Of a stretch of 64,000 nucleotides of DNA, positions 6,128 through 18,100 are shown piece by piece (within the stretch, counting starts at the first letter, position 1; each line of letters opens with the position of its first letter). The stretch is from Escherichia coli (GTDB lineage: Bacteria > Pseudomonadota > Gammaproteobacteria > Enterobacterales > Enterobacteriaceae). A program made the position numbers. The stretch lies in NCBI RefSeq assembly GCF_030013205.1, contig NZ_CP122648.1, one strand, 5' to 3'.

Positions 6128-9100
6128 TTAGCCCGCTTGCCTGCTCCAGCCGCGCGCAAATGTCTTTAAAGTTAAAAGTATGCGGCCCCATCAATACCGG
6201 AATAGCGTGTGCGGCAGCTTCCAGCGGATTATGCCCACCACGTTCAACCAGTGAACCGCCAACAAAGGCGAGATCGGCAATACCGTACAGTAACATCAAC
6301 TCGCCCATCGTATCGCCAACCACAACCTGCGTGCTGGTGGAGGGGACTTCCCCTGAAGAGCGTGTGATATAGCTTAGTCCAGCCTGGCGGACAAGGTTAA
6401 TCGCATCCGGGAAGCGTTCCGGATGACGGGGTACCAGGATGAGCAATAAATTCGGGAATTGCTGTAACAATGCCTGATGTGCGGCGATCACCACACTCTC
6501 TTCGCCTTCGTGAGTGCTGGTGGCAATCCATACCGGGCGGTGTGGTGCCCACTGGCGGCGCAGCGTCACGGCTTTAGCAGCCAGTTGCGGCGTTACAGAA
6601 ATATCAAATTTCAGGCTACCGGTAACGGTCACCTGATTATTTTTTGCGCCCAGCGCCACAAAACGCGCGCCATCTTCTTTATTTTGCGCAGCAATCAGTG
6701 TAATACGACGCAGCAAGCGGCGGACGAATTTACCCAGTTTGGCGTAACCTGCGGCCGAGCGGGCAGAGAGTCGCGCGTTAGCGATCACCAGCGGAATTTT
6801 ACGTTTATGTAGCGCCGCAATCAGGTTAGGCCATAGTTCGGTTTCCATAATCAACACCAGTTTAGGGTCGACTTTATTCAGGAAACGATTAAGTGCATCG
6901 GGCAGGTCATACGGCAGATAAACGTGCTGAACATCCTTCCCGAAAGCCGATTGTACGCGCTCCGAACCGGTTGGCGTCATGGTTGTAACGGTAATCGGTA
7001 AATCAGGATAACGATGACGCAGCGCGCGCACCAACGGGATCGCCGCCAGAGTTTCACCGACGGAGACGGAGTGCAGCATAATGCCGCCTGGTTTTAGCGG
7101 ATGGCGGTAAAAACCGTAACGTTCACCCCAGCGTTTTCGATAGGCCGGAGCCTTACGTCCGCGCACCCAGAGCCGTATCCAGATCAGCGGCTGAATAAGG
7201 TAGAGAAGGGCGGTGTAAAGCAATTCGAGCATAGTAAATAGCTGACTTATGGATGTGCTGGGGATTCTATGTATTTAGCTGTGGCTTTACCATTACTTTT
7301 CCCGTTTTTGACTTAAATAGCAATTTACCCGCCAATTCTTGCTGAACATCTATACTTTTTTTGTATTTTTATGCGATTCATTGATTTCTGCAGTACGTGC
7401 AGGAAGGAATCGCAGAGCAACAGTGAAAGAATATGGTTGCTAATGATTTTATTTGATTGATTTCTTTATTGAAAATCAACAATGTGCTTAAAAATCATTC
7501 GGGTCGGATTGCCGCGAAAGAAGTGATACACTAGCGCGTCAATATCAGTGCGGTATCAGTATTCAGGTAGCTGTTGAGCCTGGGGCGGTAGCGTGCTTTT
7601 TCTGCTTCACCTTAATCGGATAATCTCAACAAAAAGAGTTACTTGTGGATAAGCCATTTCGAAGAATTTTGCTCATTAAGATGCGTTTTCATGGGGATAT
7701 GTTATTAACTACTCCCGTCATTAGTTCGCTGAAAAAAAATTACCCTGACGCAAAAATCGATGTGCTGCTTTATCAGGACACCATCCCGATCCTGTCTGAA
7801 AATCCAGAGATTAACGCGCTCTACGGCATAAAAAATAAAAAAGCAAAAGCCTCAGAAAAAATTGCCAACTTTTTTCATCTCATCAAGGTATTACGTGCCA
7901 ATAAGTATGACCTTATCGTCAATCTTACCGATCAATGGATGGTTGCTATACTGGTTCGCTTATTAAATGCCCGTGTGAAAATTTCCCAGGATTATCATCA
8001 TCGGCAGTCTGCTTTTTGGCGTAATAGTTTCACTCATTTGGTGCCGTTGCAGGGTGGAAATGTGGTGGAAAGTAACTTATCCGTGCTGACGCCATTGGGA
8101 GTTGATTCGTTGGTGAAGCAGACAACCATGAGTTACCCGCCTGCAAGCTGGAAACGTATGCGTTGCGAACTTGATCACGCTGGTGTTGGACAAAATTATG
8201 TGGTTATCCAACCTACGGCGCGGCAAATCTTCAAATGCTGGGACAACGCCAAGTTTTCCGCTGTGATTGATGCCTTACATGCTCGTGGTTATGAAGTCGT
8301 TCTGACGTCCGGCCCAGATAAAGACGATCTGGTCTGCGTCAATAAAATTGCGCAGGGATGCCAGACGCCACCAGTAACGGCGCTGGCCGGAAAGGTGACC
8401 TTCCCGGAACTTGGTGCGTTAATCGATCATGCGCAGCTGTTTATTGGCGTTGATTCCGCACCGGCGCATATTGCCGCAGCAGTTAATACGCCGCTGATAT
8501 CGCTGTTTGGTGCGACAGACCATATTTTCTGGCGTCCCTGGTCAAATAACATGATTCAATTCTGGGCGGGAGATTACCGGGAAATGCCAACGCGCGATCA
8601 GCGTGACCGAAATGAGATGTATCTTTCGGTTATTCCGGCGGCAGATGTCATTGCTGCTGTCGATAAATTACTGCCCTCCTCCACGACAGGTACGTCGTTA
8701 TGATCGTTGCTTTTTGTTTATATAAATATTTTCCCTTTGGCGGTTTGCAGCGCGATTTTATGCGTATTGCTCAGACAGTCGCCGCCCGAGGTCATCATGT
8801 TCGGGTTTATACCCAGTCGTGGGAAGGCGAATGTCCTGATGTATTTGAACTGATCAAAGTGCCGGTTAAATCGCATACCAATCACGGGCGCAATGCGGAG
8901 TATTTTGCCTGGGTGCAAAAACATTTACGCGAACATCCCGTCGATAAAGTCGTTGGATTCAACAAAATGCCGGGGCTGGACGTTTATTATGCCGCTGATG
9001 TTTGTTATGCCGAGAAAGTAGCGCAGGAAAAAGGCTTTTTCTATCGCCTGACGTCACGTTATCGCCATTATGCCGCCTTTGAGCGGGCAACCTTCGAACA

Positions 9101-15100: not shown

Positions 15101-18100
15101 ATCTTGAAAGTGAAAGGCTATTAACATCGGAAAAAAAACAACCTAGAACAAGGCTTCAGAAAAGAATGAAGTTTATACGCTCCTGGATAAAGGTGGCTTT
15201 TTTTCTCTTTTGAAATGAGATTGTTAATTTCAATTTGTTGTGAGATATTAACGTGGAAGTAAAAATTGAGCAATTTCGAAATAATAGCTGTAATTTTATT
15301 TTTTTATTGTATTTAATCGGTTTGTTGTTTGTGCCAATTGATCTTAATATCACCACTAAAATAATTAATGCGACAGGTGCATTTTCTCTTTTCTTATTAA
15401 TTGTAAATAAAAAGCATAATTATAATAAAAATGTCATTATATTAATTCTTGGTTTACTTCTTTTGGGTGCAATGAACCTTATATGGTATGAATTTTATAA
15501 AACAGAAGATGTAGTATATAGAAATGCTTATCGAGGCTACCTTGAGTCTGGAAAACTATTAGTATTTAGCTCGTTGACATTTTTATTACTAAGTAAAAAT
15601 AAATTCAGGCAAAATGAAAAACTACATTTTATTTCAGCTATCTTAGTTCAAATAATCATGCTATGTAGAGCATATTATCAAGGGATATATTTGCATGCAG
15701 ACCGCATTCCCCTCTCCGCCATGAATGGGAATATTGGTCAGATGGGGGCAGCGACTATTGCGGCTTATGTGATTACATTTACAACTTTATATTCTTCAAT
15801 TGTATTCATAAAAATGCAATCGAAATATAAATGCTTTCTATTTTATGCTAACTTTGCTTTAAGCTTTGCAGCAGTAATGATGACAGGAACGCGTGCGGCA
15901 ATTTTCACATTCCCACTTATGATTATGGTCATATTATTTCTTCAGCATCGTGATCAAAAAGTGTTTTTATTTAAAGGATTGAGTGGTGTTTTTATATTGC
16001 TACTTGCTTGTGGTTTGATATTTAATAAGGAAATTGATAGGCGAATTAATTCATTAAAAGCTGATGTTATTTCATATGCTACAAAAAATAACAGTCAATC
16101 CTCGGTCGGAGCACGTTTTGCAATGGTTAATGCAGGAATTAAAGGAAGTCCTGATGGTTTTAATTGGCAATCTCTTGAGCAGCGTGCTGAAAAGATAAAA
16201 GCATTAAGTGCAGAAAATAATATTTATAGTGGAGCTTTATTATTCCTTGATGTACATATGCATAACGAAATTGTGGAATCTCTTTCCACGAAAGGAAAAA
16301 TTGGTCTTCTTGTTCTTATTATGTTCTATGTTGCAATGATCTATTACTGTATACGAGAGAAAAAATATATACTCTTGGTTTTCCCTGCTTCTATTATGTT
16401 ATTTGGCATTAGTGATGTCATTACACATGCTAAACCAATACCGGCATCGTGGATTGTGTGCCTCTTCCTGTCTATATCGTTTTTGAGTAAAAATGAACCA
16501 CAATAATAAAAGCGTTGACTAAGTAAGTGGGTATAATGCCCACTTACTATTTATTAAATTAATGTGATTTTTTTATAAACAGCCGCTGCTTCTAAATTAT
16601 TTAAATTCATTAGCGGAGCCCTACAAACCACCTGATTCTTCCCATATCCGCCAATTAATCCCGGATCGGTTGGTCCATAAACCGTGATATTCGGTCTATC
16701 CAGTGCCGCCGTTAAATGGCTTAACCCCGTATCCACCGACACTACAAATTTAGCCCCGGCCAGTACGCGGGCAACGCCTTCCAGACTCATCTTCGGCAAT
16801 ACTTCAACATAAGCAAATCCTTCCGCCAGTCGTTTCGCCCGTTCTTCCTCATGCGGCGCGCCCCACGGAAGTTTAATCCGTATTCCTGAATCAGCCAGTA
16901 AACCAATCAATTCTCGCCAGTGTTCTTCCGGCCAGTGTTTATCATCACGGGTCGTCGCATGAAGAAATACGGCATATTCGCCAGCATCTGTAGGCAGGTT
17001 CGTCAGGAAATGTTGTGCGATAGCATAATCACCCTGGGTTTGCGGTTTGCTATAGCCCAAACTTTTGGCAAACAGTTCGCGGGTGCGTTCTACGGCGTGC
17101 TGCTGTTTTGCAATATGATGCTTACGATTGTAAAACAGGCTGGCTAACGGTTCTCGAACGGTTTGCCAGTCCATGCCATGCTTTACGCCATGCGCCAGAC
17201 GCGTCACCAGCGCCGCGCTTTTTACCAGCCCCTGAGCGTCGATAACTGCGTCATAGTTCTCTGCTTGTAGCGCTTCACGAAACGCTTTGCGTTCAGCTTT
17301 TATGGGGGCCGAGAACCAGGCTTTACGCCAGCGACGTATTGCCACAGGAATAACTCGCTCAACGGCGGCGTGCCAGGAAGGAATCTGTGCGAACCCTTCT
17401 TCCACCACCCAGTCAAACTTAATCCCTGGGATTGCCTGCTGGGCATCAGTGAGTGCGGGCAGCGTATGGAGAACATCGCCCATCGACGATGTTTTAACGA
17501 TCAAAACCCGCATCCGTCAGGCTTCCTCTTGTAACAATAGCGCGTTGAGTTCTTCCAGTACGCGCTGGGGAGTAATGTCGATCAAGCTCTGGTGATAACC
17601 CTCCGCAGCGTCACCTTTACGCACTTTGTGATAGCCGGTAATCAGACGGATCACGCGCGCTTTATGGGATAGCGGTGGTGTGAAGTCCGGGCTACTCGGA
17701 CCATACAGGGCAACCAGCGGACGATTGAGCGCCGCCGCAACGTGCATCAGACCAGAATCGTTAGTAACAATGGCTTTACAGGCTGCAATCAGGATAACCG
17801 CTTGATCAAGCTGTGTTTCCCCCGCCAGGTTCCGGCACCATGCCTGCTGCTCGGTATTCAAAGCGGCAAGAATCTCATTGCCCGCTTCATGATCTTTCGC
17901 CGAGCCAAACAGAACCACCTGATAACCTTCATCAATCAGCTGCTTTGCCAGCTCCGCATAGTGGTAGTGTGGCCAGCGTTTTGCCGGACCAAACTCCGCA
18001 CCCGGGCAAAAGCCAATCATCGGACGTTCTGATGAAAGCGAAAATTGATTACAGGTATATGATTTTTCACCTTCGCTCACCTGCAACTGCGGCCATAACA

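Follow-up and report, generated by a model that had tools for sequence, protein, structure and literature searches.

The window examined here, a 64-kb stretch (64,000 nucleotides) of an Escherichia coli chromosome, almost certainly contains the waa (rfa) region of the R4 lipopolysaccharide (LPS) core type, as judged from published typing primers and marker genes. R4 is one of the five known versions of the E. coli core. As such, the cluster is ordinary, well described and already known, and it adds no new biology.

Architecture and typing of the locus

The ORF map and family scans reveal a series of plus-strand genes at positions 7645 to 16506, in the order waaQ-waaG-waaP-GT8-GT8-waaY-GT8-GT25-waaL (Table 1); the ORF map shows no operon ORFs beyond these nine. 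Their coordinates agree with those that RefSeq gives for an identical genome, where waaC-waaF-hldD are placed on the minus strand, convergent with waaL. For waaP, the start was taken from RefSeq (ATG at 9817) rather than from the mechanical ORF list (GTG at 9808). This is the R4 layout, waaQ-G-P-O-T-Y-W-X-L: waaL and waaQ share a strand, the R4 marker gene waaX is located between waaW and waaL, and the waaL is of the R4 type, distinct from the R1 gene. The GT25 gene at that position therefore identifies the locus as R4. The initial annotation, which described the gene content and order as R1/R4-type rather than K-12-type, with waaL closing the operon on the same strand and hldD-waaF-waaC convergent to it, is borne out by these data. 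The coaBC gene is flagged as a pseudogene in RefSeq, which proved to be an annotation artefact.

Table 1. Features of the waa region in the window, with protein identities to the R1 and K-12 counterparts
Feature	Predicted product or role	Position	Strand	Evidence	Identity to R1 (%)	Identity to K-12 (%)
coaD		5468-5947		RefSeq annotation; forms the third waa-region operon with waaA
waaA	Kdo transferase, divergent from waaQ	5955-7232	-	RefSeq annotation		99.5
JUMPStart	Operon leader with ops (7584-7595)	7557-7595	+	Rfam RF01707
waaQ (rfaQ)	Heptosyltransferase III	7645-8703	+	NF007742, E=2e-213	98.0	72
waaG	GT4 glucosyltransferase I (GlcI onto HepII)	8700-9824	+	PF00534 (Glycos_transf_1), E=3e-38	99.2	89.6
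waaP	Heptose(I) kinase	9817-10614	+	NF011703, E=5e-145; start per RefSeq
waaO	GT8 alpha-1,3 hexosyltransferase, first outer-core GT8	10630-11646	+	PF01501, E=1e-80	98.2	50.6
waaT	GT8 alpha-1,2 galactosyltransferase	11663-12658	+	PF01501, E=1e-72	99.1
waaY	Heptose(II) kinase	12668-13360	+	NF007684, E=1e-120	99.6	52
waaW	GT8 alpha-1,2 galactosyltransferase	13386-14414	+	PF01501, E=5e-72	93.3
R4 typing amplicon	380 bp	14255-14634		Primers R1R4-R (14255-14274) and R4-F (14616-14634, reverse strand)
R4-specific block	3' waaW, waaX, waaL, hairpin, 3' waaC	14340-16613		blastn against R1; G+C 27-34%
waaX	GT25 beta-galactosyltransferase, R4 determinant (255 aa)	14446-15213	+	PF01755, E=1.3e-51
waaL	R4-type O-antigen ligase, closing the waaQ operon	15253-16506	+	Wzy_C, 31.5 bits	35	31
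Hairpin	Terminator-like, 12-bp stem, between convergent waaL and waaC	16522-16548		Consensus scan only
waaC (rfaC)	Heptosyltransferase I	16554-17513	-	RefSeq annotation		96
waaF (rfaF)	Heptosyltransferase II	17517-18563	-	RefSeq annotation	99.4-99.7	99.4-99.7
hldD (rfaD)	ADP-heptose 6-epimerase, heading the hldD operon	18573-19505	-	RefSeq annotation	99.4-99.7	99.4-99.7

The operon is preceded by a JUMPStart element that scores 55.2 bits (E=6e-10) against a gathering score of 35 for its Rfam family. It carries an exact ops element, GGCGGTAGCGTG, about 50 nt upstream of waaQ, so that the JUMPStart/ops leader (ops GGCGGTAG) is in place. Leaders of this type recruit RfaH, which results in antitermination and read-through of long operons. 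All nine genes, from waaQ to waaL, would be transcribed from a point upstream of this leader in an RfaH-dependent manner. The hairpin that separates waaL from waaC may function in a terminator-like way; it is the one notable hit of the consensus scans for promoters and terminators, which otherwise returned no more than in shuffled sequence.

Typing in silico employed the primers for the five core types from PMC13293308 (Table 2 of that paper), with up to 4 mismatches allowed. Primers R1R4-R and R4-F each match the window with 0 mismatches and yield a product of exactly the published size, 380 bp, which spans waaW to waaX, the R4-F site being located inside waaX. Primers specific for R1, R2, R3, and K-12 have no match in the window with up to 4 mismatches. 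The control loci typed as published: KMS2005 gave the 842-bp R1 product, MG1655 matched the K-12 pair, and O157:H7 gave the 1,021-bp R3 product. Core-type PCR, proposed in the initial annotation as a check and run here in silico, returned the R4 product only. Further, waaX serves as the R4 marker in two independent papers (PMC13293308; PMC11237799). An exact-protein look-up and a search for GT25 homologues returned only generic names; with no explicit WaaX label among the protein names, the assignment to R4 rests on the published primers and markers.

Predicted core assembly, WaaX, and its T7 allele

The sugar and linkage specificities of the individual enzymes, and hence the structure of the resulting core, are taken from the literature; the assigned inner- and outer-core steps follow the enzyme roles reportedly established for the R1 and R4 systems by Heinrichs et al. 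1998. By analogy, WaaC and WaaF would add HepI and HepII, which would be phosphorylated by WaaP and WaaY, and HepIII would be attached by WaaQ. WaaG is expected to open the outer core by adding GlcI, and the retaining GT8 enzymes WaaO, WaaT, and WaaW probably make the main chain, an alpha-linked Glc-Gal-Gal. The inverting GT25 enzyme WaaX would then add a beta-galactose side branch, the feature that distinguishes R4 from R1. Finally, in the periplasm, the R4-specific WaaL would transfer the O antigen from its undecaprenyl-PP carrier to the completed core.

The match to PF01755 covers residues 4 to 186 of WaaX. The protein aligns with the solved bacterial GT25 structures 8xc8 and 8xlz across the E-D-D motif, with similarity found only in the N-terminal ~100 residues (E~5e-13). 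Protein comparison reveals no WaaX counterpart in the R1, K-12, or R3 loci. Its GT25 relatives in other Enterobacterales have been named beta-1,4-galactosyltransferases by their sources, and the other name returned is "glycosyltransferase family 25 protein." The donor and acceptor specificity of WaaX cannot be read from the sequence, and the published sources disagree on its linkage, which is given as beta-1,4 in PMC13293308 and as beta-1,3 in PMC3526765.

The only local oddity in the locus is a run of seven thymines (T7) near the 3' end of waaX, where the usual allele has eight (T8) and encodes a protein of 257 aa rather than 255 aa. The one-base deletion changes the C terminus from ...AFFSLLK to ...AFFLF, so that the last four residues, SLLK, are replaced by LF. 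The 255-aa form is a minority allele, found in 16 contigs, compared to 116 for one 257-aa form, and in 2 of the 40 genomes sampled across the ranking. Since the deletion alters the C-terminal tail of WaaX and the T7 form is the rarer one, the genotype could in principle be R4 while the enzyme is inactive or weaker, leaving an R4 core that lacks the beta-galactose branch. This is very improbable: the change is confined to the last four residues, far outside the GT25 domain and the E-D-D region, and the T7 allele is present in several independent assemblies and is annotated as intact in RefSeq. It may even be a homopolymer sequencing error, as near-identical sister genomes carry T8 (matches of 9,301 versus 9,302 bases). 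Even less probable is a slippage-prone T7/T8 switch of the WaaX tail that modulates addition of the beta-galactose branch. The T7 effect, which may be a sequencing artefact, is limited to the four terminal residues, and the enzyme encoded by this allele is assumed to be active.

Relationship to the other core loci

The R4 prototype locus of strain F2513 was reportedly described by Heinrichs et al. 1998 (J Biol Chem 273:29497) as waaQGPOTYWXL. The window has the same gene order, with the GT25 gene waaX between waaW and waaL and with waaL ending the waaQ operon. Apart from the T7 waaX, there is no difference of substance between the two, as compared through the published primers and markers.

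The R1 locus of KMS2005 (E. coli C/NCTC122-like) has the same operon architecture, including a waaL that ends the operon on the same strand. WaaQ, WaaG, WaaP, WaaO, WaaT, and WaaY are 97 to 99.6% identical to their R1 counterparts, WaaW is 93% identical, and the gene order is the same, all of which would fit an R1-type locus, in which waaW and waaL would be separated by the gene for WaaV, and the beta-glucose branch added by WaaV would be the site of O-antigen attachment. However, where KMS2005 has the GT2 gene waaV (327 aa; PF00535, E=4e-39), the window encodes the 255-aa GT25 protein, and BLASTP detects no similarity between the two. Even with 4 mismatches allowed, the R1-F (waaV) primer finds no site, and neither a waaV between waaW and waaL nor the 842-bp amplicon was found in the window. 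Comparison of the DNA by blastn shows 98.3% identity to the R1 locus over positions 5901 to 14339 and 97.4% over 16614 to 19700, with no homology in between, where the R4-specific block stands in place of the waaV-waaL block of R1. With the primers, the WaaV family, the WaaL identity, and the DNA comparison all refuting it, the R1 type has a negligible probability. Alignment of ORF 14446-15213 with the R1 WaaV, one part of a check suggested in the initial annotation, thus spoke against R1.

The accompanying statement that R1 and R4 differ only in their GT25 enzyme, WaaV versus WaaX, needs to be corrected on two counts. The R1 WaaV is a GT2 enzyme, and the difference extends beyond this gene: the two WaaL proteins share only 35% identity (E=6e-74), and the block also takes in the 3' ends of two further genes, ~25 codons (~75 nt) in waaW and ~60 nt in waaC, which differ from R1. 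The low WaaL identity also rules out the idea that R1 and R4 share a WaaL, which came from the GT25 cluster being smaller than those of WaaL, WaaW, and WaaT. WaaL has a Wzy_C score just below the Pfam cut-off of 31.7 bits. It matches the K-12 WaaL with E=3e-42 and has no match to the R3 WaaL in the protein comparison with the O157:H7 locus, and it is one residue off from the WaaL of a human strain that types as R4.

The K-12 (MG1655) and R3 (O157:H7 F6321) loci share with the window the flanking genes waaA and hldD-waaF-waaC and the waaQ-G-P start of the operon. They differ in what follows: K-12 carries waaS, waaB, waaO, waaJ, waaY, waaZ, and waaU, and R3, where just two genes are of the GT8 family, carries waaI, waaY, waaJ, and waaD; in both, waaL is encoded on the opposite strand as part of the hldD operon. 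The initial annotation was correct in assigning waaS/waaB and a waaL in the hldD operon to K-12 and two GT8 genes to R3. A waaL at the end of the R3 waaQ operon, which was also considered, is ruled out by its position in O157:H7. WaaO, WaaT, and WaaY share 43 to 54% identity with the corresponding K-12 and R3 enzymes (WaaO, for example, is 54% identical to R3 WaaI), whereas WaaW has no counterpart gene in either locus, its best matches among their GT8 enzymes being 38% identical. The window thus has neither the waaS, waaB, waaZ, and waaU genes and hldD-operon waaL of K-12, to which WaaO, WaaT, and WaaY are 43 to 52% identical, nor the waaI-waaY-waaJ-waaD set of R3 with its GlcNAc transferase, the GT8 enzymes and WaaY of the window being 38 to 54% identical to the R3 enzymes. 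The R2 features, namely, waaK and waaZ, the 610-bp amplicon, and a K-12-like layout, are absent from the window, as indicated by the negative R2 primers and the gene order. A closer relationship of the GT8 enzymes to those of K-12 or R3, which would have spoken against the R1/R4-type reading, is not seen, both WaaO and WaaT being nearest to R1; the WaaT sequence is exactly that of the UniRef entry Q9ZIS6_ECOLX.

Distribution and significance

Of 5,426 complete genomes of E. coli, 690 (12.7%, or about one in eight) carry the R4 waaX and waaL genes as a pair, both genes occurring in the same 690 genomes; the published frequency of R4 is 12.3%. Hundreds of E. coli genomes in RefSeq carry the same block at 99 to 100% identity, and porcine ETEC/O139:H1 genomes match the locus over its entire length at 100% identity. 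Because ECOR46 has been described as an R1/R4 hybrid (PMC13293308) and the window represents just 64 kb of the source genome, a second copy of the R1 waaV-waaL elsewhere in this genome is conceivable, but it is hardly credible: the waa region of the window is unbroken and free of IS elements and gene duplications, the window has no R1 primer site, and the identical genome of ETEC6333 has a single place that matches waaW-waaX-waaL.

For this window, the R4 core is a routine genotype call. As a rule of thumb, the family of the gene that separates waaW from waaL tells the two types apart, GT25 indicating R4 and GT2 indicating R1, which makes alignment unnecessary. Core type has been linked to susceptibility to antimicrobial peptides, with the R4 prototype showing the highest susceptibility among the five types (PMC6137088). 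It also sets the binding of phages and antibodies to rough or partly masked cells and the O-antigen ligase that is used. Were the improbable T7/T8 switch real, it would alter recognition by phages and antibodies in some R4 strains, including the porcine ETEC lineage.

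Gene content and outer-core type

The waa region almost certainly specifies the R4 outer core of the lipopolysaccharide. [quoted passage not shown] Two of the nine match the window, both perfectly: the shared waaW primer and the waaX-specific R4 primer. Primers specific for R1, R2, R3 and K-12 have no match in the window, even at four mismatches. The core-type PCR proposed in the initial annotation, run in silico, thus gives the R4 product alone, at exactly the published size of 380 bp. With the same primers, the R1 strain KMS2005 yields the 842-bp R1 product, MG1655 matches the K-12 primer pair, and an O157:H7 strain yields the 1,021-bp R3 product. 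Independently, a second paper (PMC11237799) recognises R4 by waaX and R1 by waaV.

The ORF map, drawn for window positions 3000 to 22000, contains nine consecutive plus-strand ORFs, at exactly the coordinates assigned to them initially, facing three convergent ones. This layout is confirmed by the map, by the protein families and by the same gene calls in the RefSeq annotation of one identical genome. Over 9.3 kb, the region is 100% identical to porcine ETEC and O139:H1 E. coli chromosomes. The Wzy_C score of WaaL, 31.5 bits, is marginally below the Pfam cut-off, but the protein aligns significantly with the R1 and K-12 ligases (E values below). RefSeq and NCBIfam name the waaO product "lipopolysaccharide 3-alpha-galactosyltransferase" (NF011718, 612 bits); WaaO is a glucosyltransferase in the R1/R4 literature, and the automatic name may carry the wrong sugar for the R4 core type.

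Features of the waa locus and its surroundings, in window positions; the three GT8 proteins match PF01501 with E=1e-80, 1e-72 and 5e-72
Feature	Position	Strand	Remark
coaBC	1821-3041	-	
JUMPStart	7557-7595		Rfam, 55 bits, E=6e-10; ~50 nt upstream of waaQ
waaQ	7645-8703	+	NCBIfam/Pfam, E=2e-213
waaG	8700-9824	+	GT4 family (NCBIfam/Pfam)
waaP	9808/9817-10614	+	NCBIfam/Pfam, E=5e-145
waaO	10630-11646	+	GT8, PF01501
waaT	11663-12658	+	GT8, PF01501
waaY	12668-13360	+	NCBIfam/Pfam, E=1e-120
waaW	13386-14414	+	GT8, PF01501
Shared waaW primer	14255-14274		perfect match
waaX	14446-15213	+	GT25, PF01755, E=1.3e-51
waaX-specific R4 primer	14616-14634	reverse	perfect match
T run in waaX	15196-15202		21 nt before the stop codon
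waaL	15253-16506	+	Wzy_C/O-antigen-ligase protein
Hairpin	16522-16548		12-bp stem
Three convergent ORFs	16554-17513, 17517-18563, 18573-19505	-	facing the nine-gene run
hldD-kbl interval	19506-19718		
waaH	22189-23223		
YadA-like adhesin gene	35019-41001	-	1,751 aa
RHS region	~48670-54160	-	between yibH and yibF
IS1 copy and truncated TRAP gene	~58360-60090		directly after selB
IS1397 transposase gene, start	~63900-64000		IS3 family; window end

The locus is of the R1/R4 type rather than the K-12 type, as first proposed: WaaQ, WaaG, WaaP, WaaO, WaaT and WaaY are 97 to 99.6% identical to their R1 counterparts, whereas WaaO, WaaT and WaaY share only 43 to 54% identity with the K-12 and R3 loci. 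WaaW is 93% identical to that of R1 and has no counterpart in the K-12 and R3 loci, where its best GT8 match is 38%; WaaL has no match in the R3 locus. The statements of the initial annotation on K-12 and R3 hold. The K-12 locus contains waaS and waaB, along with waaZ and waaU, and its waaL is part of the hldD-waaF-waaC operon; R3 (O157:H7) has just two GT8 genes, accompanied by a GlcNAc transferase, with waaL also in the hldD operon. R2 was judged by the negative R2 primers and by the layout of the window, which is not K-12-like.

The R4-specific segment and its waaX allele

According to the initial annotation, the GT25 enzyme (WaaV or WaaX) is the sole difference between R1 and R4. This does not stand: between waaW and waaL, the R1 locus encodes a 327-aa GT2 protein (PF00535, E=4e-39), WaaV, in place of the GT25 protein of the window, and the ligases are also strongly diverged (35% identity, E=6e-74; 31% and E=3e-42 against K-12 WaaL). 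Since WaaV is not a GT25 enzyme, the GT25 assignment already made is sufficient for R4. In the gene-by-gene comparison, WaaX has no counterpart in the R1, K-12 or R3 locus. DNA homology with R1 (98.3%) extends to position 14339, within the 3' end of waaW, and returns from 16614, within the 3' end of waaC (97.4%). The R4-specific block of ~2.3 kb has a G+C content of 27 to 34%, compared with ~50% in its flanks, consistent with a cassette acquired by horizontal transfer long ago. Outside E. coli, the proteins closest to WaaX (60 to 71% identity) come from Cedecea, Pluralibacter, Citrobacter, Buttiauxella and Leclercia.

Near its 3' end, waaX has seven T residues where most R4 genomes have eight, which shortens the protein from 257 to 255 aa and changes its end from AFFSLLK to AFFLF. 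Because near-identical sister ETEC genomes carry eight, a sequencing error in the homopolymer has to be considered; the run could also reflect slippage. The 255-aa form is a minority allele; its exact sequence is found in 16 contigs in public data, and the form also occurs in at least one unrelated human isolate. No functional effect would be expected, as only the last four residues are changed, far from the catalytic domain.

Regulation and predicted core assembly

The JUMPStart match includes an exact ops element, GGCGGTAGCGTG. JUMPStart/ops elements recruit RfaH, which leads to read-through of long operons; RfaH would here be recruited upstream of waaQ and allow read-through of the waa operon. 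The hairpin between the convergent waaL and waaC is a putative terminator.

Enzyme roles were taken from the R1/R4 literature (Heinrichs et al. 1998). By analogy, WaaG would add GlcI and WaaQ HepIII, WaaP and WaaY would phosphorylate the heptose region, and the retaining GT8 enzymes WaaO, WaaT and WaaW would make the α-linked main chain. WaaX, an inverting GT25 enzyme, would add the β-galactose branch, and WaaL would ligate the O antigen. WaaX can be aligned with solved GT25 structures over the conserved E-D-D motif. Its linkage in the 1998 work is reportedly β-1,4. Two other papers disagree with each other on it, giving β-1,4 (PMC13293308) and β-1,3 (PMC3526765).

Surroundings of the locus and frequency of R4

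The gene for the UDP-glucuronate:LPS(HepIII) glycosyltransferase WaaH is intact in the window and frameshifted in the O157:H7 comparison genome. The hldD-kbl interval contains no htrL/yibB gene; htrL adjoins rfaD in K-12, yibB lies between rfaD and kbl in O157:H7, and the gene is also missing there in KMS2005 and a human R4 strain. The RefSeq annotation of the identical genome ETEC6333 puts a pseudogene flag on coaBC ("missing C-terminus"), which is an annotation artefact; the window gene is colinear with K-12 dfp, with no indels, 10 mismatches, 406 aa and an identical C terminus. Downstream of lldP, the gene for a YadA-like trimeric autotransporter adhesin adjoins a 684-bp ORF, a RefSeq pseudogene with an internal stop. 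After a 4.1-kb gene for an RHS element core protein come a small hypothetical gene and an immunity gene of the Imm57 family, a region that looks like a polymorphic toxin/immunity locus. The IS1 copy directly adjoins a yiaN-like pseudogene, a truncated gene for the large permease of a TRAP transporter.

Among 5,426 complete E. coli genomes, 690 (12.7%) contain waaX, almost all of them with at least 99% identity, and the same 690 contain the whole waaW-waaX-waaL stretch. In ~1,836 further genomes (33.8%), the match shows the pattern of R1, being limited to the first 930 to 950 bases of waaW. Published frequencies are 12.3% for R4 and 35.4% for R1; R4 has been reported in 18% of ETEC and 26% of APEC, and is described as the major one of the types in phylogroups D, F and G. 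Given these published and counted frequencies, R4 in a porcine ETEC-like strain is unremarkable: this is a textbook, already known locus, carried by one in eight E. coli genomes.
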